A stretch of DNA of 33,963 bases from a virus (Duplodnaviria > Caudoviricetes): IMG/VR virus record IMGVR_UViG_3300043184_000051, positions 1 through 33,963 of that record; one strand, written 5' to 3'. Each line of letters opens with the position of its first letter. The stretch's first letter is position 1. Positions 1,038 to 23,294 of the stretch are shown here, in pieces. The notes under the pieces are model-generated. The model worked only from the letters and a program-made list of their open reading frames with translations, had not been told where the DNA came from and searched no databases. Position numbers and translations under genes: made by a program.

Positions 1038-1113
1038 GAGCCCATAGCTCAGCCGGTAGAGCATCTGACTTTTAATCAGAGGGTCGATGGTTCGAATCCA
1101 TCTGGGCTCACCA
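1038..1113 (+). tRNA. tRNA-Lys (anticodon TTT); probable prophage integration site
   Basis: 76 nt cloverleaf: acceptor stem GAGCCCA/TGGGCTC, D arm GCTCAGCCGGTAGAGC, anticodon loop CTTTTAA, T loop TTCGAAT, encoded CCA. Confidence 0.97.
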
Positions 1114-1219: not shown

Positions 1220-2407
1220 GTGAAGTACAGCGGGGTTTTCCGGGCCGTTGTGCGGGTGCCCGGCGCGAAGGCCATTCCACGCCAGACCAAGGCCGGGATG
1301 AGGGTCTACTACTACTGCCGCCGAACCGGCGCGGCCCTGGGCACTGAACCGGGGGAAGCCCGCGCCCGGCTGGCAGAGATACAGGCCGCCGCGACCCGCC
1401 CCCATGCGCTCGATGCGGCGACCCTTGGCGGTCTGATCGCGGCGTTCTATCGGGATGAGCGGTTCACCCGGCTGAAACCGAAAACCCGTGCGGATTACCG
1501 CTGGCACCTAGAAGCCATCCGGGAGCGGTTTGGAGACCTGCCGGTGCGCGGGATTGATGAGGCATGGATTGATCGCCTGAAAGCCAAGGGCGCAGCCAAG
1601 CCGTTCCGGACCAACGCCCGTATCGCCCGTCTCCGAAGGCTGTTCGCCTTTGCCGTCCGCGCCGGTTACGCCAAGAGCAACCCCGCGGCGAAGCCTGAAA
1701 TGCTGCGGACCCGGCCGCGGCGTATCCTGTGGTCGGAAGCCGCCGAACGGAAATTCCTCAGCGCGAAGCGTGAGGTCTTGCTTGGCGGCAATCCGAAGAT
1801 GTTGAAGTCAGCAATGCGGACCCGCACAGAGCCGTTGCCGCCGATGATCCGCCGCGCTTATCTCGTCGCGGTCTACACCGCGCAACGCCTTGCCGATGTT
1901 CTGGCGATGCGATGGGAGCAATATCAAACCAAGGGCGCGCGGGCATGGCTCCGCGTCAGGCAGGCGAAGACCGATGCTGTTGTCAACATCCCGGTCCATC
2001 GCACGCTGCGCCGGGAATTGGAGACGACGCCGAAGGACCGCCGCGCCGGGCCGATCATCACAACCGCAACCGGCCGGGCTTGGCGGCAGAAGGCGTTCTT
2101 CGTCCGTTGGCGGGCTTGGATAAAGGCGGCGGGGCTTGACGGTCTACAGTTCAGAGACCTCCGCCGCACCGCGATGGTGCGGCTTGCGGAAGCCGGAGCG
2201 AACCCCATTCAGATTGCGGCGATCAGCGGTCACTCCATCGACTACTGTCAGGGCATCTTGGAGACCTACATCCCGCGAAATCAGTTGATGGGTGAGGCCG
2301 CGATCAACCTTCTGGAAGCTCATCAAGCCGACGATGAGCCTCCTTCTTCGCCGCGTCGTCGTCATCCGGCGAAGACGGTTCCGGCGAAGGCGGCGCAGCG
2401 CCGTTGA
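1220..2407 (+). CDS. int: Phage integrase, tyrosine recombinase
   Basis: Catalytic motifs TAQRLADV (R), QAKT (K), FRDLRRT (H-x-x-R variant), SGHS and ETY (Y). Adjacent to the tRNA. Confidence 0.95.
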   Translation: MKYSGVFRAVVRVPGAKAIPRQTKAGMRVYYYCRRTGAALGTEPGEARARLAEIQAAATRPHALDAATLGGLIAAFYRDERFTRLKPKTRADYRWHLEAIRERFGDLPVRGIDEAWIDRLKAKGAAKPFRTNARIARLRRLFAFAVRAGYAKSNPAAKPEMLRTRPRRILWSEAAERKFLSAKREVLLGGNPKMLKSAMRTRTEPLPPMIRRAYLVAVYTAQRLADVLAMRWEQYQTKGARAWLRVRQAKTDAVVNIPVHRTLRRELETTPKDRRAGPIITTATGRAWRQKAFFVRWRAWIKAAGLDGLQFRDLRRTAMVRLAEAGANPIQIAAISGHSIDYCQGILETYIPRNQLMGEAAINLLEAHQADDEPPSSPRRRHPAKTVPAKAAQRR

Positions 2408-4030: not shown

Positions 4031-4384
4031 TCACGACCTCTCCTTGGCCGCAAGCGCAAGGCGCAGGCACTCAATCCGGGTGTCGCCGACAAAGCGGATG
4101 TCAACAAACTCCGTCCATCCGCCATTGCACAAAACGGCATGATCCGGCTGATCATTAAAGTCCGGGTTGGCGCAGAGAAAAGTAACGCTGTCGGCTTCGT
4201 GCTCCGTGAGCGTTTCAATTATCCGCCATGCCTCCAATGCCTCTGCATTGGGCGGCGACTGCAAGCGTTCTAGTGTGGCAACGGCCGCGCGAAGCTGATC
4301 CGCGAACGGCATGGAGAACCGCTTTCCTGCGTAGTCGGCGTACCAACGCAGCGCTTCGATCTGTTGGTCAAGCGTGTAGCTCAT
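4031..4384 (-). CDS. Hypothetical phage protein (MSYTLDQQIEAL...)
   Basis: ATGA overlap with the upstream stop at 4381-4384. Confidence 0.65.
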   Translation of the reverse strand: MSYTLDQQIEALRWYADYAGKRFSMPFADQLRAAVATLERLQSPPNAEALEAWRIIETLTEHEADSVTFLCANPDFNDQPDHAVLCNGGWTEFVDIRFVGDTRIECLRLALAAKERS

Positions 4385-4605
4385 CGCACCGTCTCCGGAA
4401 TAGTGACTACACCATATCGAATTTGCGCCCTCAGCATCCGTATCGCATCCCGCTGTTCGCGGAGACCGATATAAGCCTCCCACTCCCAAGGATGCCGGGT
4501 GCCTTGATAGGAGAGACGGAAGCGCTGCGCCTGTTGGTTCAGTTCGTATTCCGCATTGCTAAGCGCAGCGACCAGCGTTTCCGGATAGGACCGAGGCTTC
4601 TTCAT
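4381..4605 (-). CDS. Hypothetical phage protein
   Basis: ATGA-coupled at both ends. Confidence 0.65.
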   Translation of the reverse strand: MKKPRSYPETLVAALSNAEYELNQQAQRFRLSYQGTRHPWEWEAYIGLREQRDAIRMLRAQIRYGVVTIPETVR

Positions 4606-5243
4606 CCCGCCACCTCTGCCGGATCGAGCTCCAAGAGATTGCTTTCATGCACGGTGAAGGTCATCGCGGCGACGACGGGATTTTCGAGCCAATCGCCGGA
4701 GCCGTTGATTGTATCCCAGAGCTTCGCAAAGCAGTTGCGGGGGCTACTACCTAATACCGGCAGCATCACAGCCCGCCTGCCGCGACCGACTTTGTACTCA
4801 GCGCCGGGCACCGTCCAAATTTTCCCCCACTCGGTTTCTTGCTCAACAACGCCTTCTGCCTTTGCATCCCAGTTGTGGATGTCATGGACCGGATCAAAGC
4901 GGACGCCGGTAACGACCAAGGTCAGCCGGGAGCGCTCATAGGGCATGTGGATTGCGGGCTTCCACTTGATGATGTCTTTAACCGATGCCGTCACTTCACG
5001 ATCGAAGTCGGCGCGGAAGATCGTCCGGCGCGTATCTTGCGGGGCGTCGTTATCAGCGCGCCACGTCTCCTTAACCCAGAGAAGATCGCCGACCCTGACC
5101 TTACGCCATATCGTCGGCCGCTCAATCGGGAGACGGCCCTTGCGGTTGTCGAGACGAAAAAGGTGGCGGCGGGTCTGCGTCTTGCGGCCTTCGATCAGCG
5201 CGCGGATCATCGGACCCTTGAAGGTGATCGGGAAGACGCTCAC
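4602..5243 (-). CDS. ASCH/PUA-like domain phage protein
   Basis: PITFKGPMIRALIEGRKTQTRR (GxKxxxxR), VGDLLWVKETW, WKPAIHMP, AKAEG and the C-terminal W..NP.V...F motif. Confidence 0.8.
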   Translation of the reverse strand: MSVFPITFKGPMIRALIEGRKTQTRRHLFRLDNRKGRLPIERPTIWRKVRVGDLLWVKETWRADNDAPQDTRRTIFRADFDREVTASVKDIIKWKPAIHMPYERSRLTLVVTGVRFDPVHDIHNWDAKAEGVVEQETEWGKIWTVPGAEYKVGRGRRAVMLPVLGSSPRNCFAKLWDTINGSGDWLENPVVAAMTFTVHESNLLELDPAEVAG

Positions 5244-5452
5244 TGCTTCTTCTCCGACGGCTTAAAGACCTTGGCGTTTGTTGAAAGGATCGCATCGGCG
5301 AAGGCGTTCAGCGCGTCCTGTCCGTTTAGGTCAGCGGATTGCAAAGCGAACTGCCGGGCGTGCGTTGCGATGGATTGCGTCGCCGCCTCAAGCGCGACTT
5401 TCGACATTTCACGCATGACTTCATCCGGCGGAAGCTGGATCGGTTTAGTCAC
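5240..5452 (-). CDS. Hypothetical phage protein (VTKPIQLPP...)
   Basis: GTG at 5452 after GGGAGGGA. Stop overlaps the next start. Confidence 0.6.
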   Translation of the reverse strand: MTKPIQLPPDEVMREMSKVALEAATQSIATHARQFALQSADLNGQDALNAFADAILSTNAKVFKPSEKKQ

Positions 5453-5651
5453 TGCTATGTCCCTCCCACTGTTTGCAGCCCTGCCAAAGCGTCCGCTTCT
5501 GGCCGTAGACATCAGACGCCGGATTGCCGCAGCGGGAGCGCGAAACCATCCGCGAAACTGATGGCATGTAGTTAAGTCCGCCAAGGCGCTTCCAGGTAAT
5601 GATCTGCAAGTGAATACAGCTACAGCACTCGCGGGTTTTAGGAGCGCTCAC
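5445..5651 (-). CDS. Small Cys-rich phage protein
   Basis: CCSC...C...C pattern; GTGA coupling with the upstream gene. Confidence 0.55.
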   Translation of the reverse strand: MSAPKTRECCSCIHLQIITWKRLGGLNYMPSVSRMVSRSRCGNPASDVYGQKRTLWQGCKQWEGHSSD

Positions 5652-5962
5652 TTTACTTCTCCATCCGCGGTCATTTCGCGATCGAATACCGCCTCAAGGC
5701 TTTCATCGCAGCCAAATATTCCCACGCCCTGCCATTCGAGAGTATAGAGCTTCCCATGCCACGCCTTCCGGCTCTCCGGGGTGACATGGACAAGCTCTTG
5801 AGCGATGAAGTTCCATCGCCGCTCAACGTGATGAAGTCGCGACACTTCCGCGCGAAGCTCTTTGATGGCGTCGGCGCAATCCCGGAATAGATCGGGAGTT
5901 GGGGGCTTGCACGCCTGCGAGCGAAGCCATGCCTCATAAGCGTCAAGATCGGCGTCGTTCAT
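5648..5962 (-). CDS. Hypothetical phage protein (MNDADLDAY...)
   Basis: ATGA overlap at 5959-5962; short coiled coil. Confidence 0.6.
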   Translation of the reverse strand: MNDADLDAYEAWLRSQACKPPTPDLFRDCADAIKELRAEVSRLHHVERRWNFIAQELVHVTPESRKAWHGKLYTLEWQGVGIFGCDESLEAVFDREMTADGEVK

Positions 5963-6243
5963 GGCTCGCACCCCAACTGTCGAATGCGGCGCTCCCACCC
6001 GGCAATTTGCTGAGTGATGATCTGCCGCACCAAGTCCACCGGGAATTCAACTTTGACCCTGCGAACCTGATGGACGCCTTGCCCGACGTAGAAATCTTTT
6101 TCCGCCGGAAAGCCGCTGCCCAAAATGTACGGCCATTGCAGGACCTCTAAGTCCTTTTTTCGATGGCGTATGCACTCCCGTAAGTGATCGACCTCATTGA
6201 TCGTTTTCGCCGCCTCTCGCATCTGTTGTTCCGTTAGGTGCAT
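5959..6243 (-). CDS. Hypothetical phage protein
   Basis: Preceded by AAGGGGAACAGCG; coupled to the downstream gene. Confidence 0.6.
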   Translation of the reverse strand: MHLTEQQMREAAKTINEVDHLRECIRHRKKDLEVLQWPYILGSGFPAEKDFYVGQGVHQVRRVKVEFPVDLVRQIITQQIAGWERRIRQLGCEP

Positions 6244-10269: not shown

Positions 10270-10486
10270 TCGTCTTTTTCTCCTTCTCCGCTGTTACAAA
10301 AAACGTCCCGCTAGGCGCGGTCACAACGGCCTGCCCGTCCTTGAGTAAATGGCTGGCGAACTGCGCTTCGAACCTGATCCGCTCCAAGGCGTAGTCCCGC
10401 CAGAAATCCCGCTCAGCGAGCAGAAGGCGATTTCGCGCCTCCTGCTCGGCTGCGCCGGGCGTTGTAATGAAGTAACGGTAGGTCAT
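10262..10486 (-). CDS. Hypothetical phage protein
   Basis: ATGA overlap with the ATPase stop codon. Confidence 0.65.
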   Translation of the reverse strand: MTYRYFITTPGAAEQEARNRLLLAERDFWRDYALERIRFEAQFASHLLKDGQAVVTAPSGTFFVTAEKEKKTNE

Positions 10487-12162
10487 GCGGCGGCCTCGCT
10501 GATAACAGCTTCGGCGCGGCCGTTTTCTACCCAGTATGTTTTCCCGAGACCGAGAGCCGCTAAATCCGGCGCGCGGCGTGCTCCGTTAATCGTCATTCCG
10601 ACGAGAGCCGGGAGTGTTGAAATCTCTAAGGCCGACAGCAAGCCGTTGCGTGCCGCGCTGTCGAGAATATCCGCCTCGTCGATGACGACGACATGCGAGC
10701 GATCAAGGCGGGCGATCACAAGCTGTGATACAATCCGCGCCAGATACCGCTCGCTTGCGCTGCACAACGACAGCGCGCGGCCTCCTACAGTGACTTCAAG
10801 GTCGTCTGACAGAACGATCGTCGGCCAAGCCGCGGCGGCACATAGAATATGAGCGTCTTTGTTGAACCGCTGAACCGCCGCCGCCATCTTGCGCTGCCGC
10901 AAACCATCCGGTGCAAGTTCCGCAACGATTGCGGCATTCTCCAAAATCGTCCGATGCAGGCGTGCGGCGCGTCGCCGCTGATCGGTTGCGACGGCGACGG
11001 CTTCCGCCTTCGCCAACTCCGCGCGGGCGGCGGCGATTGCATCGGCGTTCTTAGAAAGACCTTCTTCCGCGGCCTTAACGGCGGCCTCAGCGTTTAGAGC
11101 GTCGTTGCGGTCGGTCTCTGCATGGGCAACGGCGTGACGGGCCGTCGATAGGGCGCTCTTGGCCTTCGACAGCGCGCCCTCGGCTTGCGCAATGGCGATC
11201 CGGCGCTCCTTCAGCTTCTGCGTATTGCCGATGTTCTCGACGGCGGCAAGCGACCAAGCACCGTCACGGAAGACCAGTGATGAAGTCTCGTTACAATGCG
11301 GGCAGGTGACTTCCGGGGCCTCTTTCTCAACATCGCCAAGCGCTGTGCGCTTTGCTTCGGCGTCGCTCAGCGCGGCCTCTGCGGCCGTTAAAGCGATCTT
11401 TGCATCCGCGACGCGCTGCGCTGCCGCGCTAAGGCCACCTGCGGTCAGGCGAAGCCGCTCTAAATCCGCCTCTGATACCGCGCCCTTTCCAACGGCCTTT
11501 TCGACGGCAATGCGGGCTTGTTCGACGGCGTAGGTTGCGGCGACGTCCTCGACATCATCCCAGGCGAGATCGTAGTTCTGCGGCAGCCATGTTTCGGCTT
11601 TCTTGGAGCCGTACTTTTCGCCGGTGATGTGCTCCCAGGCACCCTTTTTCTTGGTGCCGTTTTCGCGGGCGGTCTTGTGCGCGCTGTCCCATCCGTATTC
11701 GCCGATATGCGACCATATCGCTTTGATCGTGGCGTCATCCGCCTTGCCGCCTAGCGCGGCGTAAAGATCGGCCTCGACCGGCGCGGCGTTGAGAATTTCC
11801 GCCAACAGCGCCATCACCTGCGGCGGCTTGTAAGCGGTAAAGAAATCGAGACCAGCGGCGATGCGTGAAGCCCAGGGCGGATTGTCGCCCGCCGTAGCAA
11901 CCTCAGCTTGCGGCCACTTTACTTCGGCCGTGGCATTACCGGATGCAACGACAACCTGCGCCGCCTCTTTGCCGTCGTGGATAAGCTCCGCGGCGGTCTT
12001 CTTGCTGGTTCCCAACGGCGTCGGGTCGCGGGCAAGTGCCGCGGCGGCGGCTTGAAGGATGGAGGATTTACCGGCGCGGTTGCGACCGGCGATGAGCGCG
12101 ATGGGCGCGACCGTCACATTGGCGACGGCCGCCCCGCGGAAGTTCCGAACGGCGATTTCCAT
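10483..12162 (-). CDS. Rad50/SbcC-like (SMC-type ABC) ATPase with short coiled coil and zinc hook
   Basis: VRNFRG, Walker A GRNRAGKSS, central CPHC within an Ala-rich coiled coil, signature-like LCSASE, Walker B VVIDEAD. Confidence 0.85.
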   Translation of the reverse strand: MEIAVRNFRGAAVANVTVAPIALIAGRNRAGKSSILQAAAAALARDPTPLGTSKKTAAELIHDGKEAAQVVVASGNATAEVKWPQAEVATAGDNPPWASRIAAGLDFFTAYKPPQVMALLAEILNAAPVEADLYAALGGKADDATIKAIWSHIGEYGWDSAHKTARENGTKKKGAWEHITGEKYGSKKAETWLPQNYDLAWDDVEDVAATYAVEQARIAVEKAVGKGAVSEADLERLRLTAGGLSAAAQRVADAKIALTAAEAALSDAEAKRTALGDVEKEAPEVTCPHCNETSSLVFRDGAWSLAAVENIGNTQKLKERRIAIAQAEGALSKAKSALSTARHAVAHAETDRNDALNAEAAVKAAEEGLSKNADAIAAARAELAKAEAVAVATDQRRRAARLHRTILENAAIVAELAPDGLRQRKMAAAVQRFNKDAHILCAAAAWPTIVLSDDLEVTVGGRALSLCSASERYLARIVSQLVIARLDRSHVVVIDEADILDSAARNGLLSALEISTLPALVGMTINGARRAPDLAALGLGKTYWVENGRAEAVISEAAA

Positions 12163-12168
12163 GACGGC

Positions 12169-13170
12169 CTACTCGTCATCGAAAGCCGAACGGGTTTTTG
12201 CCGGTTTCTCAGGCTCCGCCTTCGCCGTCTCCTGCACCGGCTCCTTCTCCGGCTCCGGTGCCGCGGACTGCTGAACCGCCGGGCGCTTGTCTTCAAGCTG
12301 CGGCGATTGCTTCTTCGGCTCATCTTTCTTCGCCGTCTCGGGTTTGCCGCCGTCATTTTCGATGGTGGCACCGACAAGCCCCAACGCCGTTGCGGCGGCG
12401 ATGAATTGCTGAACGCCTTCCGCGCGCGCGGCATCAGACAGCCCGGCAATCTGATCCCATCCCAAACCCCAAACCGCTTCACGCGACAGCGGCACGGCAT
12501 GGCGCGCGGCGAAGGCCATGACGCCGTTGCGCTTCTGCTCGATGACGTTGCCGGTGATGTCGATGTCTTCGCCAAGCGCAAGGCACTGCTTCTCGAACTG
12601 AATTTGCACGTCCTGAGGCACAAGGCGGAGAACGGCGTTTCGATAGGCTTTGCTCTGCGCAATGGTTTGGAAGTTGGGCCGCTGATACGGCGTGCCGTCG
12701 CGCCGCGTTTCCATGCGAAGTTCGCTTCGCTCCATCTGCACCGAATTGCCGGTCTTGATGTCAGTGACTTCAATAACGACGGTGTAATAATCCGGGTCAG
12801 CGGCAAGCTCCGGAACCTGCGCCGCCGTTACCTGCATCGGCTGCCCCTCGCTTGGATAGGAGGTGAAGCGGAACAGCGAGCCGTTTTTTTCGACACTGGC
12901 GACAAGCCGATGTTTCAGCCCCTTGTAGAACCGCGCCAAGTGCGCCGCACCGATGACGGAAATCCCGGCGACTTCCTCGTTCTTGATCTTGAACTTGTAG
13001 ACAAAGGCGCGGCCCCTGCTGCCGTTGAGGATTTCATCGGCAAGCAGCGCCTCATCGGTGCGGTCCATCGCGTGCAAGAGGTCGATGTCTACGCCGCCGC
13101 CGGAAGCCGCCGCGGCGATGACCGCGGCCTTATCAGATCGTGCAGCGGCAAGTTTGGGGAGGTTTTGCAT
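12169..13170 (-). CDS. Conserved-looking phage protein; candidate single-strand annealing protein
   Basis: ATG 13170 after AAAGGA. Lies between exonuclease and ATPase, with AQSKAYRNAVLRLVP helix and a disordered charged tail. Function inferred from context only. Confidence 0.55.
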   Translation of the reverse strand: MQNLPKLAAARSDKAAVIAAAASGGGVDIDLLHAMDRTDEALLADEILNGSRGRAFVYKFKIKNEEVAGISVIGAAHLARFYKGLKHRLVASVEKNGSLFRFTSYPSEGQPMQVTAAQVPELAADPDYYTVVIEVTDIKTGNSVQMERSELRMETRRDGTPYQRPNFQTIAQSKAYRNAVLRLVPQDVQIQFEKQCLALGEDIDITGNVIEQKRNGVMAFAARHAVPLSREAVWGLGWDQIAGLSDAARAEGVQQFIAAATALGLVGATIENDGGKPETAKKDEPKKQSPQLEDKRPAVQQSAAPEPEKEPVQETAKAEPEKPAKTRSAFDDE

Positions 13171-13184
13171 ACGCGGATGTCCTT

Positions 13185-14015
13185 TCACTTGGGTTGAAGA
13201 AGGGAGGATGCGCCGTGCTCTCGACACCACTTCGTTCCGTGCGCCGGGCAGTATTTTGCGGAGCAGAGTTGCGATGCTGGGTTGGCGAGAAACACATGCG
13301 GATCACCGGACGCCCGGAAGGCTTCGACGTCGGCGGCGACGCGGTACGCGGTGGCCAGCGCGGCGCGCTCGGCAACGACGGGGTTGTAGGTGTAGGTCAG
13401 CGCCGGAGGCTGGTCTTTGTGGACCGAAACCCTGGGCACGAAATCTTCAAGCAGCATATCGACCTGATGGCCGTGACTGCGGCGGAGAAGCGAATAAATC
13501 CCAAGCTGATGGACGTGACTGCGCTTCATCACGCCGGTCTTGGTGTCACGGATACCGCCGGGTTCATGAACCGCTTGATCGGCGCGGCCGGAGACGATGA
13601 CGCCCGGCGCAAGCTCCGCCTGCAACCGTTGTTCGATCGTGATCGGTGCCACGCCCGGCGCAATGTCCCGGCGATAGGCCCGAAGCATCCGCTGCACCTG
13701 CCGTTCGGCGGTCCGCATATCGCCCGTCGTTCCATCCCAGACGACGCCTTCGCTGGCCTCTTTGCGGAGCGCATCAATCGCGGCGTCCGTCGCCGCGGTC
13801 TCCGGTGCCAGATCACCGCTGCGCATCTTCTCCGCATAGGAGACTTCGACCCCGGCATGAACCGCAGTGCCGACGCAAGCACCGACATTCTGCGGGGTTC
13901 GGTTGAGATCGAAACCGGCGTCTTTCAGCAGGGATGGCGCGATCTTGGCGATGCCACGACGGGGGCAGTCGACGTAAGACGCCAATGACGATGCGCGGAT
14001 GACGAGCGCGGTCAT
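13185..14015 (-). CDS. RecB/Cas4-like PD-(D/E)XK exonuclease
   Basis: Start ATG 14015 (MTALVIRASSL). Motifs YVDCPRR, GTAVH, IEQRL, SGRAD, DTKTG, QLGIY and C-terminal LCSAKYCPAHGTKWC (1+3 Cys pattern). Confidence 0.85.
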   Translation of the reverse strand: MTALVIRASSLASYVDCPRRGIAKIAPSLLKDAGFDLNRTPQNVGACVGTAVHAGVEVSYAEKMRSGDLAPETAATDAAIDALRKEASEGVVWDGTTGDMRTAERQVQRMLRAYRRDIAPGVAPITIEQRLQAELAPGVIVSGRADQAVHEPGGIRDTKTGVMKRSHVHQLGIYSLLRRSHGHQVDMLLEDFVPRVSVHKDQPPALTYTYNPVVAERAALATAYRVAADVEAFRASGDPHVFLANPASQLCSAKYCPAHGTKWCREHGASSLLQPK

Positions 14016-14173
14016 CGACTGCCACCCCAGGCGATGACGGCGGCCCCGGCGGCATAAACCGCGGCGACGTACAGCGCGAAGCGGCGGGTGTTGCGCGGAA
14101 GATCGGCGGTGCTCATCCCGAGACCGGCAGCGGCGACCATCAGCAACGCCCAAGTCAGTTGTGCGTCGGTCAT
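14012..14173 (-). CDS. 53-aa two-helix membrane protein (absent from the ORF track)
   Basis: Hand translation gives MTDAQLTWALLMVAAAGLGMSTADLPRNTRRFALYVAAVYAAGAAVIAWGGSR. ATGA overlaps at both ends. Confidence 0.7.
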   Translation of the reverse strand: MTDAQLTWALLMVAAAGLGMSTADLPRNTRRFALYVAAVYAAGAAVIAWGGSR

Positions 14174-14760: not shown

Positions 14761-15174
14761 CTACGGTTTTTTCTTGGCGGCCGGGCGGGGGGCGTCGGTG
14801 AGCAGGCGGCGCAGAGCGGCCAACTCCTCAGCCATGGCGGTAAGCTGCGCCTGAACCGCGGCGGCCAACTCCGCCGACTGTGCGGCTTGGAGATTGGCGA
14901 GCGCGCCCTGTCCGAAAATCGCCGTCTGCATATCGAGCAGCGGCGCGATTTCCTGCGCCGTTACGCCCTTTTCGATCAATACACGGGAGAGCGGAAGCGC
15001 GAATTCCGGCGGCAAGAAGTCGCCTTTGAACCGATTTTCATAATGGTTGATGAGCTGCTTGGAGCGGCCGGTGGCCTGCGCTAGCTCGACTTGGGTAAGC
15101 CCGGCGCGTTCGCGGAGGACGCGCAATAGGCGGCCGATATGGCCCGGCGGTTTTGGCTGGTCTGCTCCCTGCAT
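14761..15174 (-). CDS. XRE-family HTH prophage repressor (CI-like, no S24 peptidase domain)
   Basis: LRVLRERAGLTQVELAQATGRSKQLINHYEN plus a C-terminal coiled coil. ATG 15174 preferred over the track's TTG at 15213. Confidence 0.85.
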   Translation of the reverse strand: MQGADQPKPPGHIGRLLRVLRERAGLTQVELAQATGRSKQLINHYENRFKGDFLPPEFALPLSRVLIEKGVTAQEIAPLLDMQTAIFGQGALANLQAAQSAELAAAVQAQLTAMAEELAALRRLLTDAPRPAAKKKP

Positions 15175-15184
15175 GTAGTCGGGG

Positions 15185-15213
15185 CTTATACGCCCATCGG
15201 TCAAAAAGTACAA
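15185..15213 (-). promoter_or_regulatory. Repressor promoter (PRM-like)
   Basis: TTGTAC (15213-15208), 17 bp spacer, TATAAG (15190-15185), ending 10 bp before the ATG. No Shine-Dalgarno. Confidence 0.65.
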
Positions 15214-15290
15214 CTCCGATCATCCTCCCCCTTGACAACCCACCAAAGCCTGGGGTCCAAGCCATTATACCGCACGGGAGGGGACGGGCG

Positions 15291-15719
15291 ATGGCGCGGC
15301 GATCACGCCCTTGGACACCCGAGGAAGACCAGGCGCTGATGCTTAGGGTAGGCCGCCATGAAGACATGACGCAGATCGCCGCTGATCTCCGGCGCAATCT
15401 TCGTGAATGCCATATCCGCTACACCAAGCTCCGCGAACACAATCGAATTCAGACCTACCGCGCGCAACGCTCGGTTCGGGCGCAGCTACCGTCCGGCCCG
15501 TTCCGTGCGCACAACGCCGTCGCCGGGCGCAGCGCGCCGAATGATGCGGCGCTCCGTGATGAATGGCTTAAGCGCAACCGTCCGACGAAGTGCCCGCCGG
15601 GCTTCGCCATCGGCTATGCGCGAATGAACTGGCTGCCTGAAATCGCCGCAGACGAGCAGCCGGTTGAACCCGTTGCGGCACTCCCCAAACCAAACCGAAA
15701 GAAGGAAGTGAAGTCATGA
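15291..15719 (+). CDS. Myb/SANT-like (GcrA-related) HTH regulator in the Cro position
   Basis: ATG 15291 after GGGAGGGG. RPWTPEEDQALMLRVGRHEDMTQIAADLRRNLRECHIRYTKL. Confidence 0.7.
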   Translation: MARRSRPWTPEEDQALMLRVGRHEDMTQIAADLRRNLRECHIRYTKLREHNRIQTYRAQRSVRAQLPSGPFRAHNAVAGRSAPNDAALRDEWLKRNRPTKCPPGFAIGYARMNWLPEIAADEQPVEPVAALPKPNRKKEVKS

Positions 15720-16297
15720 TGCAGACGCCGTCAGGACAGGCCGTCGTTCTTGCCCGTGAAACGATGGTCGGCGACTTGAGAGATAACATCCTCGAAATCT
15801 TGAAGCACAATCACGACGCCCTGCCGTGGAATATGCGCGGCGTCGATAAGCAGCACGAAATCATCGACAACGTAACCCGTCGCGCTGAGGCCATCGTCGA
15901 GCGGGCGGTTGATATTCTGGCGTCCGATGGCCGCCGGGTGATGACCGGCAAGCTGGAAAGCGTCGCCGTCAAAGACGGCTTCGTCGCCAAGGTTAAGCTC
16001 AGCAAAGACGATCCGCTCCGTCATGCCTTGGTCGATGCCACCGGGCATAAGGTCGTCATCGTCGTCGCGGCGACCGATGATTATTCCGGTGCCCGCGGCG
16101 ATGTCAGGATTGAAAGCCCGCAGCGCGGCTTGCCGTTCGATAAGGCTAAGGACGGCGAAGAACTGCCGGAGCCGACGGCGGAAGAAGACGACGCCGAAAG
16201 TCAGACCGACGACATCGACGAAGATGATGACGTCGATGAAGACGGCGACGATGACGGCGAAGAATTTGACGACAGCGACGACGAAGAGCACCGCTGA
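15716..16297 (+). CDS. Phage protein with very acidic C-terminal tail
   Basis: Globular N-terminal region followed by EEDDAESQTDDIDEDDDVDEDGDDDGEEFDDSDDEE. Confidence 0.75.
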   Translation: MMQTPSGQAVVLARETMVGDLRDNILEILKHNHDALPWNMRGVDKQHEIIDNVTRRAEAIVERAVDILASDGRRVMTGKLESVAVKDGFVAKVKLSKDDPLRHALVDATGHKVVIVVAATDDYSGARGDVRIESPQRGLPFDKAKDGEELPEPTAEEDDAESQTDDIDEDDDVDEDGDDDGEEFDDSDDEEHR

Positions 16298-16321
16298 CCG
16301 ATGAGGGCTTGATCGGGGAAG

Positions 16322-16744
16322 ATGCGCGGCCGTCGTATCGCACTGCCGGTTCCGAAAGAACAGGACCTGCAGATGGCGGTCGTGCGCTTCCTCAACCTCG
16401 CTCTGCCGCGGGAGCGCGTGGCGGTGGAGTGGACCTGCTTCCCGGCTGGCGGCGGCGGAAAAATCCGCGGCTCGATCCTCAAAGGCATGGGGCTTAAATC
16501 CGGTTGGCCCGATCTTCAATTCCTCTACCGCGGCCGGATGTTTTTCATCGAATTAAAGCGCCCCGGAGAGAAGCCGGAAAAACATCAGCGCGATCTTCAT
16601 GACCGCCTCAGACACTGCGGCGGCCATGTGGATTGGGCGGATAGCGTCGAACAGGTCGAAGCCATCCTTCGCCGGTGGGGCATCCCCCTTGTCGCTTCCG
16701 TCTGCATGGGCAACCCCAACGCTTTTGAGCAGGCCATCCGATGA
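16322..16744 (+). CDS. VRR-NUC domain nuclease (putative Holliday-junction resolvase)
   Basis: EQDLQ...MGLKSGWPDLQFL...FFIELKRPG...Q...H..L...G. Confidence 0.88.
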   Translation: MRGRRIALPVPKEQDLQMAVVRFLNLALPRERVAVEWTCFPAGGGGKIRGSILKGMGLKSGWPDLQFLYRGRMFFIELKRPGEKPEKHQRDLHDRLRHCGGHVDWADSVEQVEAILRRWGIPLVASVCMGNPNAFEQAIR

Positions 16745-17304
16745 CCTCAGCCGCCGCCGTACAGGTTCCTCAGTTTTCATTCCGCAACGTCGATGAGCTT
16801 GTCCCCTACGCCAACAACGCCCGCACCCATAGCGAAGCGCAGGTGGCGCAGATCGCGGCGAGCATCGCTGAATTCGGCTTCAACGCCCCGGTTCTCATCG
16901 ACGGTGCCAACGGCATCATCGCCGGTCACGGCCGCGTCATGGCGGCGAAGAAGCTCGGTCTTGTTCAGGTGCCGGTGATCGAACTCTCCCACATGACCGA
17001 GGCGCAGAAGCGGGCCTATATCATCGCGGACAACAAGATCGCGCTTAACGCCGGATGGGACGAAGAAAAGCTTGCCGCTGAAATCGCGGCGCTTTCCGAT
17101 GTCGGCGTCATCAACATCGAAACGCTCGGTTTCAGCGAAGATGAAGTCGCCTCACTTCTTGCCGGTCATGGCGATGACGCACCGACGGCAAAAAAGCCGC
17201 CCGCACAGTTCCCGTCCTATGACGAGAAAATCCAGACCGAGCACCAATGCCCTAAATGCGGCTATCGCTGGTCCGGCAAATCCCAAGCCACGGATGATGA
17301 ATGA
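16741..17304 (+). CDS. ParB/Srx N-terminal domain protein with C-terminal zinc ribbon
   Basis: LVPYANNARTH, SIAEFGFNAPVLID, IIAGHGRVMAA, IADNK, and terminal HQCPKCGYRW. Confidence 0.9.
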   Translation: MTSAAAVQVPQFSFRNVDELVPYANNARTHSEAQVAQIAASIAEFGFNAPVLIDGANGIIAGHGRVMAAKKLGLVQVPVIELSHMTEAQKRAYIIADNKIALNAGWDEEKLAAEIAALSDVGVINIETLGFSEDEVASLLAGHGDDAPTAKKPPAQFPSYDEKIQTEHQCPKCGYRWSGKSQATDDE

Positions 17305-18500
17305 GCGAGAAGCCGCCCTATCGGGTCCCGTCGATGGCGGAGATTTCAGCGCTTGCCTGGAACGGCTTCAATGTCGCTTCGACCTTTTCCGGCTGCGGCG
17401 GCTCGTCTCTCGGTTATCGCATGGCGGGCTTCCGTGTCCTCTACGCCAGTGAATTCGTCGATGCCGCGCGCGATACCTACCGCGCCAACTGCGCGCCATA
17501 TACCTTCATTGACGGCCGCGACATCCGGCAGACCCAGGCGGAAGACATTCTAGCCGCCTGCGGCCTTGCCAGCGGGGAGCTTGATCTGTTGGACGGCTCT
17601 CCGCCGTGCGCGTCATTTTCTACCGCAGGCAAGCGCCATAAGGCTTGGGGGAAGGTCAAAGCCTACAGCGACACCCAGCAGCGCGCCGACGATTTGTTCT
17701 TTGAGTTCGCCCGTATCGTCGAAGGCGTTCGGCCGAAGACCTTCGTTGCGGAGAATGTCAGCGGTCTCATCAAGGGCGTTGCGAAGGGATATTTCCTGGA
17801 AATCCTTCGACGCCTCAAAGCCGCGGATTACGAAGTCGAAGCAAGACTTCTTGATGCGCAATGGCTCGGTGTTCCGCAGGCCCGACAGCGGCTGATCTTC
17901 GTCGGCGTCCGGCGTGATCTAGCCGACGTTTTCAACGTCGCTCCGGCCCACCCTTCTCCGCTTCCCTATCTCTATTCGGTGCGTGATGCGCTGCCCTGGC
18001 TGACCTCTGTGATCCATGACACCAGCGGCCAATTCGGAGCCGGTAAAGTCATCAACCGACCGTCGCCGTCGATCACCGTGGGCGTCAATTCGGTGAATAG
18101 TCTTCACTTTAAGATCGCCGGAGCCGCGCAGCCGGTTGAGCCGGAAGCCGATATTTCCCGCTTCGCCATCGCTGAGGAATGGGACAAGCTTGCACCGGGC
18201 GGGCAGAGCGACCGTTATTTTCAGCTTGTTCGCCCTGATCCGGATCAGCCGGTGCCGACGATCACCGCGCATGGCGGAACGACGAGCCTCGCCAGCGTCA
18301 CGCACCCGACGGAGCGTCGGAAGTTTTCGATTGCAGAGCTTCGACGGCTGTGCGGTTTCCCGGATGATTTTATTCTGACCGGAACCTATGCGCAGCAATG
18401 GGAGCGGCTTGGCCGCGCCGTCCCGCCGGTGATGATGATGCACATCGCCGCCGCCGTCCGTGATCGTATCCTTATCCCGCTTCGTGAAAGAGGTGCGTGA
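17301..18500 (+). CDS. DNA cytosine-C5 methyltransferase-family enzyme; predicted carboxymethyltransferase
   Basis: Motif I FSGCGG, IV GSPPC, VI ENV, VIII QARQR, IX RLCGFPDDF. Motif X is LGRAVPP, with Arg372 where Asn is usual. Confidence 0.9.
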   Translation: MSEKPPYRVPSMAEISALAWNGFNVASTFSGCGGSSLGYRMAGFRVLYASEFVDAARDTYRANCAPYTFIDGRDIRQTQAEDILAACGLASGELDLLDGSPPCASFSTAGKRHKAWGKVKAYSDTQQRADDLFFEFARIVEGVRPKTFVAENVSGLIKGVAKGYFLEILRRLKAADYEVEARLLDAQWLGVPQARQRLIFVGVRRDLADVFNVAPAHPSPLPYLYSVRDALPWLTSVIHDTSGQFGAGKVINRPSPSITVGVNSVNSLHFKIAGAAQPVEPEADISRFAIAEEWDKLAPGGQSDRYFQLVRPDPDQPVPTITAHGGTTSLASVTHPTERRKFSIAELRRLCGFPDDFILTGTYAQQWERLGRAVPPVMMMHIAAAVRDRILIPLRERGA

Positions 18501-18571
18501 TGTGCGGCATCGCCGGGACATTCAACGTGCCGAAATTTTATCAGCCTATGGACCAACGGCTGTTTAGGTGA
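18500..18571 (+). pseudogene. 23-codon remnant of an AsnB-like (Ntn, class II) glutamine amidotransferase
   Basis: MCGIAGTFNVPKFYQPMDQRLFR*. Has its own GAGGTG RBS and a TGATG overlap with the MTase stop, and ends 3 nt before the next ATG. Confidence 0.7.
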
Positions 18572-18574
18572 ACT

Positions 18575-19255
18575 ATGGATATTCCCCGGAATTGGACGTT
18601 CGAGACCAGTGAAGTCGCTAAAGGATTTGAGCGGCATGTCAGAGAACAGTTGCCTTGGTATGAACTGATCACCGGCGCGGTGGCTCATGTCGCCCGCCAT
18701 TACATTCCGACCGGCGGCCGCATCTACGATATCGGCGCTTCAACCGGCAATATCGGCCGCGCGCTAGCAGAGACCATCGAGGACCGCAAGGCGGAGCTTA
18801 TCGGCATCGAGGCGTCGGCTTCGATGGCTGAGCTTTACAGCGCGCCGGGCAAGGTAATTTGCGCTGATGCCCTCCATTTCGATTTCGAGCCATTCGATGT
18901 CGGCATCCTGATGCTGGTCATGATGTTTATGCCGGTCGCTGAACGCGGTGCTTTCTTAGAACGGCTTGCCGCAAAGGCCCGGCCCGGCGGAGCGCTGATC
19001 ATCATCGACAAAGTCGAAGTCGGCGGCGCCTACGCCGCAACGGCGCTTTACCGACTGGCGCTTGCCGGGAAGGTCGCTGCCCAAGTCCCTGCTGATGAGA
19101 TTATCGCGAAAGAGCTTTCGCTTGGCGGCGTTCAGCGGCCATTGAGCGGCCCGCCGATTGCTGGCGCGGTGGAGTTCTTCCGCTTCGGTGCCTTCGCCGG
19201 ATGGGTCTGGGAGGCCGCGGAGCGCCAGGCCCGGCCGCCGGGCTATGGACAGTAA
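18575..19255 (+). CDS. CmoA-like class I SAM-dependent enzyme (carboxy-SAM synthase-like)
   Basis: Collinear with CmoA as I recall its sequence: NWTFE..VA..F..HV..QLPWY, IYDIGASTG, AER..FL..L....RPGGALIIIDK, EIIAK..SL..V, FFRFGAF. Confidence 0.8.
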   Translation: MDIPRNWTFETSEVAKGFERHVREQLPWYELITGAVAHVARHYIPTGGRIYDIGASTGNIGRALAETIEDRKAELIGIEASASMAELYSAPGKVICADALHFDFEPFDVGILMLVMMFMPVAERGAFLERLAAKARPGGALIIIDKVEVGGAYAATALYRLALAGKVAAQVPADEIIAKELSLGGVQRPLSGPPIAGAVEFFRFGAFAGWVWEAAERQARPPGYGQ

Positions 19256-19290
19256 AACGTCATTGCACTACGGCTAAGCCCTGTGAAGAA

Positions 19291-19322
19291 GAAAGCCCGT
19301 CGGCGCGAACCGGCGGGCTTTC
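19291..19322. terminator. Strong hairpin after the modification operon (terminator or attenuator candidate)
   Basis: GAAAGCCCGTCGG-CGCGAA-CCGGCGGGCTTTC, a 13-bp stem with one G-U pair. The U tract is short. Confidence 0.55.
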
Positions 19323-19429
19323 AGGGGTGACGCCCCTTGCAGGGAACAGCGAAGCGTCGTGATCTCTATACAAGCCCAGCCGTTCCCGGTCAAATGTGAT
19401 TATACACCGCCGCAATACGGGGACGGGCT

Positions 19430-20029
19430 GTGCAGGCAATTCATGTTGAGGTCAAAAACCGCGACGCGCTCTATGCGCTCGATGCGCTTGCCCGTCGGCA
19501 AATTCCCTTCGCCACCGCCGTTGCGCTGACCCGTACCGCGATTGAAGCCCGCGATGCTGTGCGGATGCAGGCGAAGGAGCGCTTCACCATCCGAACCCCT
19601 TGGGTGCTTAAAGGCATTCAGGCGAAGTCAGCGGATAAGCGCAGCCTGACCGCGCATGTCATCGCCCGCGACGACTTCATGGCGCTACAGGAAGAAGGCG
19701 GGGTGAAGGAAGCCCGTGGCAAAGCGCTAGGCGTGCCGGTGGAAGCCCGCAATCCGAAGACGTTGGTAACCCGACCGAGTAAATGGCCCGGCGCGCTGCT
19801 ACGACGGAAACGCAAATTCTTCACCGGTCAGGTCAAGGGCAATGTCCCCGCCGTATTCCGGCGTGATGAGGACGGCGGCCTGACGCTGTTCTACACCCTG
19901 CGGCCTAGGGTTTCGATCAAGCCCCGTTTCGGCATGGTGGAGAAGGTCCGTGAGGTTGTGACTTCACGATATGCCGCGCTGTTCGCGGAAGCCTTCGCCC
20001 AAGCCCGCAAGACGGCGAAGCCGCGATGA
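19430..20029 (+). CDS. Basic phage protein, lambda gpZ-like (tail completion/neck family)
   Basis: RQIPFATAVALTRTAIEARDAV...F..RTPW...QEEGG.K pattern; Arg/Lys rich. Confidence 0.6.
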   Translation: MQAIHVEVKNRDALYALDALARRQIPFATAVALTRTAIEARDAVRMQAKERFTIRTPWVLKGIQAKSADKRSLTAHVIARDDFMALQEEGGVKEARGKALGVPVEARNPKTLVTRPSKWPGALLRRKRKFFTGQVKGNVPAVFRRDEDGGLTLFYTLRPRVSIKPRFGMVEKVREVVTSRYAALFAEAFAQARKTAKPR

Positions 20030-20367
20030 TCCTCAACCGCTATGACGTCGCCGATAGCTGGTCGGATTGGTGCCCCGACCTGGATACCATCGACCGCGTC
20101 GGCATGGCGTTTCTGCTGGAATGCTCGGCCAACGGCGTCGCCTATACCTCGACGCAGCGCCTAGCCCGTGCGCTCAGCATCACGGAGAGCCGGGCGGAGC
20201 AATTGATCTTGCGGCTTAAATTCCGGGGATACGCAAGAATTGCGCACTTGGGCGATTGCATCGAAGACGTCGATCAGTCGACCAGCCAATTCTATCAAAT
20301 CTACTTTGACGACATCTGCCTAAACGGCGGTCAGCCGCTCACCCTAATCCACGTCGCCAGACAGTGA
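20026..20367 (+). CDS. Winged-HTH-like hypothetical protein
   Basis: STQRLARALSITESRAEQLILRLKFRGY; ATGA overlap. Confidence 0.6.
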   Translation: MILNRYDVADSWSDWCPDLDTIDRVGMAFLLECSANGVAYTSTQRLARALSITESRAEQLILRLKFRGYARIAHLGDCIEDVDQSTSQFYQIYFDDICLNGGQPLTLIHVARQ

Positions 20368-20377
20368 GGACAGCACG

Positions 20378-21421
20378 ATGGCAAAGCTCCCCTTTGTGAA
20401 GTTTTTCCCCAACGACTGGCGGGCGGAGACATCTGTTCAGTTGTCGTCGCTGTCGGCGCGCGGCCTGTGGCTCGAAATGCTGCTGATCATGCACCGGGCA
20501 GAGCCGCGGGGGCACCTGCTGGTCGACGGCAATCCGGTGGAGCCGCCGGAGTTGGCAAGGCTGGTCGGTGCGCCGCTTGCCGAGGTCGAACAGGGGCTAT
20601 CCGAGCTTGAGCGCCGGGGTGTTTTTTCCCGCAACCGCGCCGGGGTGATTGTGTCCCGGCGGATGGTGCGTGAGGAGAAGCTGTCGAGCAAACAGAGAGA
20701 TAACGTCGAGAAAAGGTGGAGAAAACCGCAAAAACCAGACCCAGAGCAAACCACTGAGAACAAAGAGCAATCCGACTTTGGTAATACCAAACCGATACCA
20801 AACGGATACCAAACCGATACCCATCAGAGGTTCAGAGGCTCAGAGGTTCAGAATAAGGCTAGTTCTGAACCGTCAGAGCAAGCTTCACCGTCCCCTGTTA
20901 CCGTTAGAGCAAACGGAGAGGTCGGGGCTAGTTCTGAACCAGCGCGCGCGCGCAAGCTCGAACTGGACCCGGAGCCGGAACGCGCCGCCACCGTCATCCA
21001 ACACCCGAACCAGCAGTCATGGTCAGCCCAAGCCGTCACGGCCCTGCGCAAGCTCGGAGTTGATCGGGACAAGGCGCAGGAGGCCGTCGCGATCTGGCGG
21101 AAGCGTTTCAGCCAAGACGACATCGATGAAGCCATCGACACCGCAAAGTTGGAGGACCGACAGGGCGGTCAAAACATCATCGGCTTCGTTGGTGCGGTTC
21201 TCCGTCGGATGAAGCGGGAGCATGAGCAAGTCCAGGCCGCAGAGCGCCGGGCTGGCAAGAAGCAGCAGCGGACACGGTGGTCCCCGCGCTTCGGTCAGGT
21301 GACTTACACAATCGGCGAACGCCTGGACCTTCCCGATAAAAGCTACATCGACGAAGACGGCGTGCTCTACGAAAAGAACCTCAACGGTCCGGGATGGGAT
21401 CGTTACGGCGGCGGCTGCTAG
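20378..21421 (+). CDS. Phage replication initiator-like protein (lambda O analogue)
   Basis: N-terminal PFVKFFPNDW...LSARGLWLEMLLIMH...SRRM winged-helix pattern, a low-complexity middle carrying DNA repeats, and position directly before the helicase. Confidence 0.75.
   Translation: MAKLPFVKFFPNDWRAETSVQLSSLSARGLWLEMLLIMHRAEPRGHLLVDGNPVEPPELARLVGAPLAEVEQGLSELERRGVFSRNRAGVIVSRRMVREEKLSSKQRDNVEKRWRKPQKPDPEQTTENKEQSDFGNTKPIPNGYQTDTHQRFRGSEVQNKASSEPSEQASPSPVTVRANGEVGASSEPARARKLELDPEPERAATVIQHPNQQSWSAQAVTALRKLGVDRDKAQEAVAIWRKRFSQDDIDEAIDTAKLEDRQGGQNIIGFVGAVLRRMKREHEQVQAAERRAGKKQQRTRWSPRFGQVTYTIGERLDLPDKSYIDEDGVLYEKNLNGPGWDRYGGGC
20777..20940. repeat. Iteron cluster, probable phage replication origin
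   Basis: ATACCAAAC(C/G)G x3.5 at 11-bp period (20784-20821) with an inverted TTTGGTA at 20777. TCAGAGGY x3.6 (20824-20852). GGCTAGTTCTGAACC at 20857 and 20926. Confidence 0.75.
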
Positions 21422-21452
21422 CGTTTAGAAAATCGGAAAACGGGGAACAGCG

Positions 21453-23294
21453 ATGAGCGTAGCGGAAGAACTTGGTGCCAACGGAATACGGCCGCGGAGC
21501 TTTGAGCCCGGATCGTACAAAACCACATGTCCGAAGTGTTCTCACACCCGGAAGAAGAAAAGCGATCCTTGCCTCAGCATCACCATCAACGCGGATGAAA
21601 CCGCGCTGTGGTACTGCCACAACTGCGAATGGAAGGGAGCCGTCGGGAAATCCGACCACGGCAACCGGCAGACGAAAATCTACAAACGGCCGAAGCTACC
21701 GGAGGAACGGAAGACATCGGCGAATATGCTGGCGTGGTTCAAGAACCGCGGGATCAGCGAGGAAACCGTTCAGGAGTTCGGCTGCTACCGCACCGCGCAT
21801 TTCTTCCCGCAGCGAAACGGCAAGGTGAACTGCATCGCCTTCCCCTACACCGTCGGCGGCGAAGTCGTGAATGTGAAATACCGCGCGGATGTCGAAGACC
21901 CGCATACCGGGGCCTGGAACAAGATCATGGCGCAGGAGAGCGAGGCGCAGCCCTGTTTCTTCAACGCCGACAACATGGCGACCGATGAAGTCATCTTTGC
22001 CGAAGGCGAGACAGACGTGATGTCGCTTTGGGAAGCCGGTTATCGTTCGGTCGTCTCGCTTCCCAATGGTGCAGGCAAGACGGCGAAGTTCGATGCGCAT
22101 GATCTCCGCTTCGTTCCGTTCAGCTTCCACGCCGAACAGGTCATCAAGCTGTCGAAGGTCATCATCGCCACCGACATGGACGCCCCAGGTGAGGCGCTGG
22201 CGAAGGAAATCGCATGGCGCGTCGGAGCCGACCGCTGCTTCCGCGCCAATTGGCCCGATGACTGCAAAGACGCAAATGAGGTCTTGGTAAAGCACGGCGC
22301 TGAGAAGTTACGGGACTGCATCAACTCCGCAGCGCCTTGGCCGCTCGACGGCATTATGCGGCCGGTCGCATTTCGTGATGACGTCTTCGCTATCTATCGC
22401 GGTGAAATCGACAAAGGTCTCAGCACCGGATTTCTGGCGCTTGATCCCTACGTCCAATTGATGCCGTGTTCATTCAACGTCATCACCGGCTTTCCGAACT
22501 ACGGCAAATCGACGTTCATGAACCAGCTCTGCCTGAACCTGTCGAAGCGCGAAGGCTGGCGTTGGGCGGTGTTCTCACCCGAGCAGACCCCGCGATGGAA
22601 CATGATCCGCCTCGCCGAAATGTTCCTCGGCAAAAGCTTCAACGGCAGCGCCTATCTCCGGATGACGGAGGCAGAACTGGCCTTCGCCTTGGAGTGGATC
22701 GACAAGCACTTCGTCTTCCTCGGCTCGCCTGAGGCCGCACCGACGATTGAATGGCTACTCGAACGCGCCCGCTACGCCGCGGTTCGCTACGGCATCAACG
22801 GCCTCGTCATCGATCCCTGGAACGAAGTCGAGCAAAACAGAAGTCGCTACACCACCGAAACGGAATGGATCGGCGGCTCCATCGGACAGATCAAGCGCTT
22901 CAACCGGGCGCACGAAGTTTCCTCCTTCGTCGTCGCCCATCCGTCCAAACCGGCAAAGGAAAACCGCGGACAGATGAAACCGCCCGGCCTCTACGACATC
23001 AGCGGCTCACAGCACTGGGTCAACAAAGCCGACCTCGGCTTGGTCGTTCATCGCGATGACGATGCAGGGCGAACCGACATCCACATCCGCAAGGTCCGGG
23101 AGCAGCCGACCTTCGGCAAGCTCGGCACCGCGCATCTGCGGTTCAGCGGCACCACCCGGCGCTTCGAGGAAATCGAGGAACCCGCCCCCGGCCTCGGCTT
23201 CGGCAGTACCACCCCGGCTAGACCCTACCGGCCCTCGGCACCGCCCCCCGACCCGGAACCGGATCACCCGGCCTTTTCCGGCTTCGCGGAGTAA
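21453..23294 (+). CDS. Bifunctional primase-helicase (T7 gp4/Twinkle-like, SF4)
   Basis: Zinc domain CPKC...CHNC, TOPRIM EGETD and DMD, KDANE, Walker A GFPNYGKST, VIDPWN, VVAHP, YDISGS. Confidence 0.92.
   Translation: MSVAEELGANGIRPRSFEPGSYKTTCPKCSHTRKKKSDPCLSITINADETALWYCHNCEWKGAVGKSDHGNRQTKIYKRPKLPEERKTSANMLAWFKNRGISEETVQEFGCYRTAHFFPQRNGKVNCIAFPYTVGGEVVNVKYRADVEDPHTGAWNKIMAQESEAQPCFFNADNMATDEVIFAEGETDVMSLWEAGYRSVVSLPNGAGKTAKFDAHDLRFVPFSFHAEQVIKLSKVIIATDMDAPGEALAKEIAWRVGADRCFRANWPDDCKDANEVLVKHGAEKLRDCINSAAPWPLDGIMRPVAFRDDVFAIYRGEIDKGLSTGFLALDPYVQLMPCSFNVITGFPNYGKSTFMNQLCLNLSKREGWRWAVFSPEQTPRWNMIRLAEMFLGKSFNGSAYLRMTEAELAFALEWIDKHFVFLGSPEAAPTIEWLLERARYAAVRYGINGLVIDPWNEVEQNRSRYTTETEWIGGSIGQIKRFNRAHEVSSFVVAHPSKPAKENRGQMKPPGLYDISGSQHWVNKADLGLVVHRDDDAGRTDIHIRKVREQPTFGKLGTAHLRFSGTTRRFEEIEEPAPGLGFGSTTPARPYRPSAPPPDPEPDHPAFSGFAE

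Follow-up and report, generated by a model that had tools for sequence, protein, structure and literature searches.

A CmoX-type DNA cytosine transferase beside a ligase remnant and a CmoA-like gene in a putative temperate phage

Gene organization of the locus

The DNA analyzed here, a stretch of 33,963 nucleotides that we refer to as the window, contains a cassette in which genes for a ParB-like protein, a CmoX-type C5-cytosine transferase, the remnant of an amide ligase and a CmoA-like protein are linked by overlaps or 3-base gaps (Table 1). The ParB-like protein is recognized by its PHROG profile; its match to Pfam ParB_N is weak and below the cutoff. Elsewhere in the window, a tRNA-Lys(TTT) gene directly precedes a tyrosine integrase gene, and there are genes for a helix-turn-helix (HTH) protein, a primase-helicase, a lambda-type terminase, a portal and a capsid protein, with an overall GC content of 61.5%; the window thus appears to derive from a temperate phage, and the element looks integrated. 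Genes on the opposite strand for an AAA ATPase-like protein, a 353-aa protein and a PD-(D/E)XK nuclease probably form a recombination module. Brucella anthropi/intermedia and Azospirillum are the sources of the closest named homologs of the transferase, so our guess is that the host is an alphaproteobacterium. A promoter scan yielded nothing above shuffled sequences (1 versus 1.4).

Table 1. Position of the cassette and of other features in the window
Feature	Position	Strand	Evidence
tRNA-Lys(TTT)	1038..1113
Tyrosine integrase	1220..2407
AAA ATPase-like protein, 353-aa protein, PD-(D/E)XK nuclease; probable recombination module	10483..14153	-
ParB-like (ParBc) protein, 187 aa; stop overlaps transferase start	16741..17304	+	PHROG 620 ParB-like, E 4.1e-57
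CmoX-type C5-cytosine transferase, 399 aa	17301..18500	+	best PDB match 8YF3 by sequence and fold
Motif IV, S100-P-P-C103 followed by Ala104 (M.HhaI Gln82 position)	17598..17612	+	alignment, co-variation with motif X
Motif X, G371-R372-A373-V374 (SpCmoX G349-R350)	18411..18422 (R372 codon 18414..18416)	+	alignments
Ligase stub, 23 codons; relic N-terminus of glutamine-amidotransferase/asparagine-synthetase-like ligase (CmoY type)	18500..18571	+	translation, profile
Putative carboxy-SAM synthase (CmoA-like), 226 aa; E180 and R188 at the columns of E. coli Arg199 and Leu207, respectively	18575..19255	+	alignment, fold

The transferase and its characterized homolog

Residues 23-385 of the transferase match the Pfam DNA_methylase domain (PF00145; E 3.1e-51), and its score against TIGR00675 (152.8 bits) exceeds the cutoff of 100.65. 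In a sequence search of the PDB, the first match is 8YF3 (E 5.6e-65, with the runner-up at E 4.6e-22), which is also first in a fold search with the structural model of the transferase (mean pLDDT 80; E 5.7e-26); the model matches the folds of M.HaeIII and M.HhaI as well. The 8YF3 structure is that of CmoX from Synechococcus phage S-B43 (hereafter SpCmoX), described by Yang et al. (Nat Commun 2025, December; PMC12783734), the only publication that we found relevant in the literature on CmoX or phage cytosine carboxymethyltransferases with asparagine synthetase. In SpCmoX, R350 replaces N304 of M.HhaI and contacts the carboxymethyl group of carboxy-SAM (Cx-SAM); the wild-type enzyme accepts Cx-SAM as its sole cofactor, the R350N mutant is inactive with both cofactors, and DNA carboxymethylation by SpCmoX blocked HhaI (PMC12783734). 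The same work identifies SpCmoA of S-B43 as an active Cx-SAM synthase and reports that S-B43 DNA contains the glycine amide, with the glycine added by CmoY, and no free 5cxmdC. It also predicts 5,615 homologs that combine SPPC with R350 and have CmoA, ligase and ParBc neighbors, the ParBc neighbors being typical of CmoX contigs.

The transferase and SpCmoX share 152 of 362 aligned residues (42%). The original prediction that motif X reads G-R-A-V was confirmed by translation (GGC CGC GCC GTC, in the protein context QWERLGRAVPPVMMM) and by gapless alignments in which R372 lies opposite R350 of SpCmoX and opposite the Asn of G-N-A-V or G-N-S-V in M.HaeIII, human DNMT1 and DIM2; its equivalence to N304 of M.HhaI rests on the published overlay of 8YF3 and 1MHT, and its likeness to M.MpeI N374K on the discussion in the same paper (PMC12783734). 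Among the best 120 of 7,998 scored homologs (7,242 at E <= 1e-20), the R372 column holds Arg in 118, Asn in one and an unreadable residue in one, so that R372 is a feature of the clade rather than a product of chance or sequencing error. The codon is identical in a contig of run X1, which may be the source sample and is thus not independent.

The prediction that the other motifs are intact holds for motifs I (F29), IV, VI (E151-N-V), VIII (Q193-x-R195-x-R197) and IX, all of which are present, but not for the position after the catalytic Cys, where Ala104 replaces Gln; the combination of Arg372 and Ala104 differs from the motif X Asn and post-Cys Gln of canonical SAM-dependent 5mC methyltransferases. 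The four named cofactor contacts of SpCmoX (F25, E47, F48 and D69) are all kept, as F29, E51, F52 and D74, along with C103, E151 and R195. The transferase has both features that define the CmoX family in PMC12783734, the SPPC motif (S100-P101-P102-C103, SpCmoX S95-P96-P97-C98) and the R350 equivalent, and is flanked by CmoA and ParBc neighbors. By analogy with R350 of SpCmoX, for which there is a crystal structure and an assay, Arg372 would bind the carboxylate of carboxy-SAM and mark a cofactor switch, as originally proposed. This idea is right, yet already published (PMC12783734), and with a natural Asn-to-Arg switch on record in thousands of predicted homologs, the locus alone adds little.

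The two systems share the C5-MTase fold, SPPC, the motif X Arg, the F/E/F/D cofactor contacts, a small residue after the catalytic Cys (A104 in the window, S99 in SpCmoX) and a CmoA-like neighbor with Glu at the Arg199 column. In contrast, S-B43 is a cyanomyovirus with the gene order A-Y-X and the ligase CmoY, whereas the window, with ~61% GC, lambda-like head genes and a temperate character, has the order ParB-X-stub-A and no intact ligase. The variable regions of the two transferases are divergent, and the GC target motif of SpCmoX cannot be assumed for the enzyme of the window. Several 6-base palindromes (GCCGGC, GGCGCC, CCCGGG, ATCGAT, ACCGGT and AGGCCT) are strongly avoided in the window: AGGCCT is absent, GGCGCC and CCCGGG occur once each, and GCCGGC occurs twice, at 616 and 730. 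Because these only GCCGGC sites lie to the left of the tRNA-Lys gene, they suggest a host-prophage junction near 1.1 kb. The palindrome avoidance, which points to restriction pressure on the window, argues against assuming S-B43-like GC-wide protection, given that a long-standing GC-wide mark should make such avoidance unnecessary.

Association with CmoA and phylogeny

Searches with transferase queries produced 175 loci (4 + 11 + the top 80 of 592 + the top 80 of 554). Of these, 123 have Arg, 37 have Asn and one has Leu in motif X, the remaining 14 being truncated at this position. Adjacency was counted over the 127 Arg-type and Asn-type loci with at least 1 kb of downstream DNA, reduced to 112 by dereplication at 90%; the count excluded the three named phages and the loci fetched by the CmoA query. 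Of the 91 Arg-type loci, 88 have CmoA next to the transferase, as against none of the 21 Asn-type loci; with at least 2.5 kb downstream, the counts are 73 of 74 and 0 of 15, respectively. The three exceptions among the 91 Arg-type loci lack CmoA in the DNA covered, and two of these have only ~1.0-1.3 kb downstream. The Asn-type relatives are 50-63% identical to the transferase of the window and are therefore a near control for the Arg-types.

The enrichment of GRxV methyltransferases beside CmoA-like genes anticipated by the original prediction is thus apparent in the counts, at about three independent contrasts only. In a FastTree phylogeny of 90 rows, with motif X masked and the root placed on SpCmoX, 15 Asn-types nest inside the Arg clade, which requires 4 changes, at least 2 of them forced by strong branches; labeling the Asn-types as reversions depends on rooting by SpCmoX alone. 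Independent pairs on well-supported branches number 3 (2 concordant, 0 discordant and 1 uninformative; sign test p 0.5) and, because there are just these 3, the Fisher p values (7e-20 and similar) for the association between Arg and CmoA are not evidence of co-evolution. The association is near-perfect but inflated by kinship, and repeated co-evolution is not demonstrated by 3 independent pairs.

Several loci depart from the common arrangement. The transferase of L090 (991-1983), which the tree pairs with an Arg-type as its sister, has Leu in motif X; its catalytic Cys is followed by Asp, and there is no CmoA in 3.5 kb downstream. In L099, an Arg-type transferase (613-1788) has no CmoA within 3.5 kb downstream and is followed by an Asn-type C5-MTase (4250-5191). 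Two close relatives, L006 and L012, one of them in Azospirillum himalayense, have an antisense open reading frame (5208-6002 and 4695-5324, respectively, both on the minus strand) in the ~0.9 kb that separates cmoX and cmoA; these two frames resemble each other and match neither ligase profile.

A second residue probably linked to cofactor choice

Apart from R372, the best separator of Arg-types and Asn-types is column 104, directly after the catalytic Cys. After dereplication at 80%, 95 of 96 Arg-type representatives have Ala, Ser or Cys in this column, and 22 of 26 Asn-type representatives have Gln; before dereplication, Gln is found in 0 of 127 Arg rows and in 28 of 34 readable Asn rows (3 are unreadable). 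The loop 123-129 also differs between the two types. Ala104 corresponds to Gln82 of M.HhaI through the equivalence of C103, SpCmoX C98 and HhaI C81, and M.HaeIII has Gln at the aligned position. In M.HhaI, the transferable chain of the cofactor lies between Gln82 and Asn304, and the Q82A mutation lowers AdoMet activity ~16-fold (PMC3526304). The main text of PMC12783734 does not mention Gln, Q82, S99 or Ser-99, although the weblogo in its Fig. 8e may show the column.

Engineered enzymes have been altered at these positions of the pocket, in the Asn of motif X and in the post-Cys residue: in M.HhaI Q82A/N304A, both were changed to Ala for synthetic cofactors (PMC3526304), and M.MpeI N374K and M.MedI N377K have Lys in motif X and still methylate with SAM (PMC12015181), whereas the enzyme of the window naturally pairs Arg with Ala. 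Because these Lys variants use SAM, a basic residue alone appears insufficient to exclude it. The cofactor switch is likely a two-residue one, in which Arg recruits the carboxylate and a small residue at position 104 suppresses methylation; the kinship caveat, with its 3 independent pairs, applies to the co-variation of residue 104 too. Such a switch would explain both the inactivity of SpCmoX R350N and the continued use of SAM by the Lys variants. Given that R350N is dead with both cofactors and that Ala104 co-varies with Arg, R372N would probably not produce a clean switch.

The persistence of SAM methylation in the Lys variants, together with the three Arg-type loci in which CmoA is missing from the DNA covered (two of them short downstream), leaves some room for the view that the transferase is bifunctional, or simply makes 5mC from SAM in the ordinary way despite the Arg in motif X. 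This is unlikely, considering that wild-type SpCmoX took Cx-SAM only (PMC12783734), that Ala at the Gln82 position strongly impairs AdoMet activity in M.HhaI, and that none of the 21 Asn-type relatives adjoins CmoA. Specificity for carboxy-SAM remains the preferred reading.

The CmoA-like neighbor

The best PDB match of the CmoA-like protein is E. coli CmoA, 4GEK (sequence E 1.7e-11, fold TM 0.77), although CysG and BelI methyltransferases match the fold almost equally, so that the fold does not separate CmoA from CysG/BelI; the score against TIGR00740, 62.6 bits, is under the cutoff of 193.3. The protein is 26% identical to E. coli CmoA and 18% identical to SpCmoA. Compared with E. coli CmoA (4GEK/4IWN), it keeps the Y39, G64, S66, D117, F137, K165 and K198 columns but is shorter at the C-terminus, has Met113 for Asn132 and Arg at the Leu207 column, and carries Glu180 in place of Arg199, the residue that salt-bridges the carboxylate in the E. 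coli enzyme (PMC3663124). SpCmoA likewise has Glu here (E188), and Lys at the column of Arg188 of the window protein, eight positions beyond the Glu column. The available text of a review (PMC10491745) describes the CmoA mechanism with nothing on Arg199.

We surveyed 84 representatives of 119 CmoA-like sequences. An acidic residue at column 199 with a basic one at 207 is found in 49 of the 84, and a basic residue at 199 with a non-basic one at 207 in 25; none has a basic residue at both, and 81 have one at 199, 203 or 207. The Glu/Arg pair is present in all 120 close homologs listed for the protein of the window. Because the basic residue occupies either 199 or 207, and never both, this pattern suggests that the charge moved rather than vanished, a shift that would account for phage CmoA proteins failing the Arg199 rule. 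In a third subtype, formed by the CmoA-like frames of L002, L004, L009 and L010, the Arg199 column is occupied by Ala and the Glu203 column by Arg. No cmoB was detected among the open reading frames of the window that were scanned.

A relic of a ligase gene

In place of the intact AMP-forming amide ligase of a complete CmoA-CmoX-CmoY system, the window has only a stub, which shares its first base with the end of the transferase stop codon (TGATG), reads MCGIAGTFNVPKFYQPMDQRLFR up to its own stop and starts with MCGIAGTFN. With a profile built from 20 ligase N-termini, the stub is the top one of 54,907 six-frame positions of the window, at 30.2 bits, the next scoring 9.5. At this position, relatives encode a 450-472-aa protein with GATase and asparagine-synthase domains. 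The nearest relative on the tree, L033, keeps an intact ligase (GATase_6 and Asn_synthase), and the ligases of L029 and L032 start with MCGIAGTF. The one-base stop/start overlap is found in 6 of 22 amidotransferase-type ligase frames, including that of L033.

Only about the first nine ligase codons are recognizable in the stub. Its tail resembles ligase C-termini by eye, but its profile score of -6.9 bits, which is reached by 309 of 50,209 window positions, is not significant; we therefore rejected the idea that the stub joins the beginning of the ligase gene in frame to its last codons. We also rejected an assembly artifact or mixed alleles, as one contig of X1 (possibly the source) spans 15000-21000 in one piece with a single synonymous difference (at 18371), and the stub has no joint among the joints listed. 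The sequence of L026 is 100% identical to 19173-23252 of the window and ends short of the stub junction.

The cluster of A0A7T0Q3R0 (PMC12783734), gp122-125 of Streptomyces phage TurkishDelight and L033 are all CmoX clusters with a ligase of the glutamine-amidotransferase type. The order ParB, CmoX, ligase position, CmoA is common to the window, TurkishDelight and L033, in which CmoX is, respectively, 65% and 74% identical to that of the window, and L033 shares the identical stop/start overlap after CmoX; however, in clusters of this type the ligase is intact, at full length, whereas the window has a stub. Across the 91 Arg-type loci, in the DNA covered, 56 have no ligase, while the ligase is of the amidotransferase type in 19 and of the short type in 16; 76 ligase-less Arg loci yielded one loose pattern match (L048) and no stub like that of the window. 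Ligase HMMs run against the six frames of the window gave no match. Since the nearest relative keeps the ligase, the stub remains, and there is no ligase elsewhere in the window, the ligase gene was most likely deleted in the lineage of this phage, and the predicted product of the cassette is therefore likely bare 5-carboxymethylcytosine. The contig extends beyond the 34 kb of the window (to 56,973 bases in X1), so a ligase could lie outside the window.

Together with the integrated look of the element, with its tRNA-Lys gene beside the integrase gene, the reduced ligase would fit a CmoX-CmoA module retained by descent that is decaying or silent in a prophage-like element, where damage would have begun with the ligase and the DNA would stay unmodified. 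Ligase loss could indeed be a sign of a decaying cassette, but the transferase and CmoA-like frames have kept their full length and every catalytic and cofactor residue, and ligase-less modules are common, as the counts above attest; we consider a silent module very unlikely. The least probable reading is that the neighbor of the Glu/Arg subtype, with its shorter C-terminus and lacking the carboxylate binder Arg199 of E. coli CmoA (PMC3663124), makes a different acidic SAM derivative, or that a ligase encoded in the rest of the phage or the host genome, beyond the window, amidates the mark, so that the final base is not bare 5cxmC: SpCmoA, with the same Glu, is an active Cx-SAM synthase (PMC12783734), a basic residue is placed at 199 or 207 across most CmoA-like representatives, and the window is devoid of any ligase match.

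Proposed function and implications

Judging from the sequence comparisons, the transferase is very probably a DNA cytosine C5-carboxymethyltransferase that writes 5-carboxymethylcytosine on phage DNA, with carboxy-SAM likely supplied by the CmoA-like protein encoded two genes downstream. By analogy with SpCmoA, the CmoA-like protein would make carboxy-SAM from SAM and prephenate. As in SpCmoX (8YF3), Cys103 would then attack C6 of the cytosine while Arg372 holds the carboxylate, and the carboxymethyl group would be transferred to C5. Ala104 would disfavor plain methylation, selectivity resting on two residues, as suggested by the co-variation and the M.HhaI Q82A data. With the ligase gene that separates CmoX and CmoA in the nearest relative reduced to a stub, the mark would stay a free carboxylate instead of an amide; its purpose may be protection from host restriction.

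Three aspects of the locus are additions apparently absent from the text of PMC12783734: the co-variation of residue 104, the ligase stub and, in the CmoA-like neighbor, Glu in place of Arg199 with a basic residue eight positions later. We further put forward a tentative scenario, which may well not hold as a whole: the switch between Arg with a small residue and Asn with Gln would have flipped back more than once, the nested Asn/Gln relatives having lost CmoA and returned to SAM, and a fresh loss of the ligase would leave unconjugated 5-carboxymethylcytosine in virion DNA. The Asn/Gln relatives without CmoA are natural, ready-made controls. The co-varying second residue hints at how CmoX excludes SAM, which is relevant to the enzymes for carboxymethyl-based 5mC sequencing that still use SAM, and, if the scenario is true, the two-residue switch would be a rule for building strictly Cx-SAM-specific enzymes. 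The ligase stub would be the trace of a return from hypermodified DNA to DNA with a single modification and, again if the scenario is true, unconjugated 5-carboxymethylcytosine in virion DNA would represent a state unseen in S-B43.
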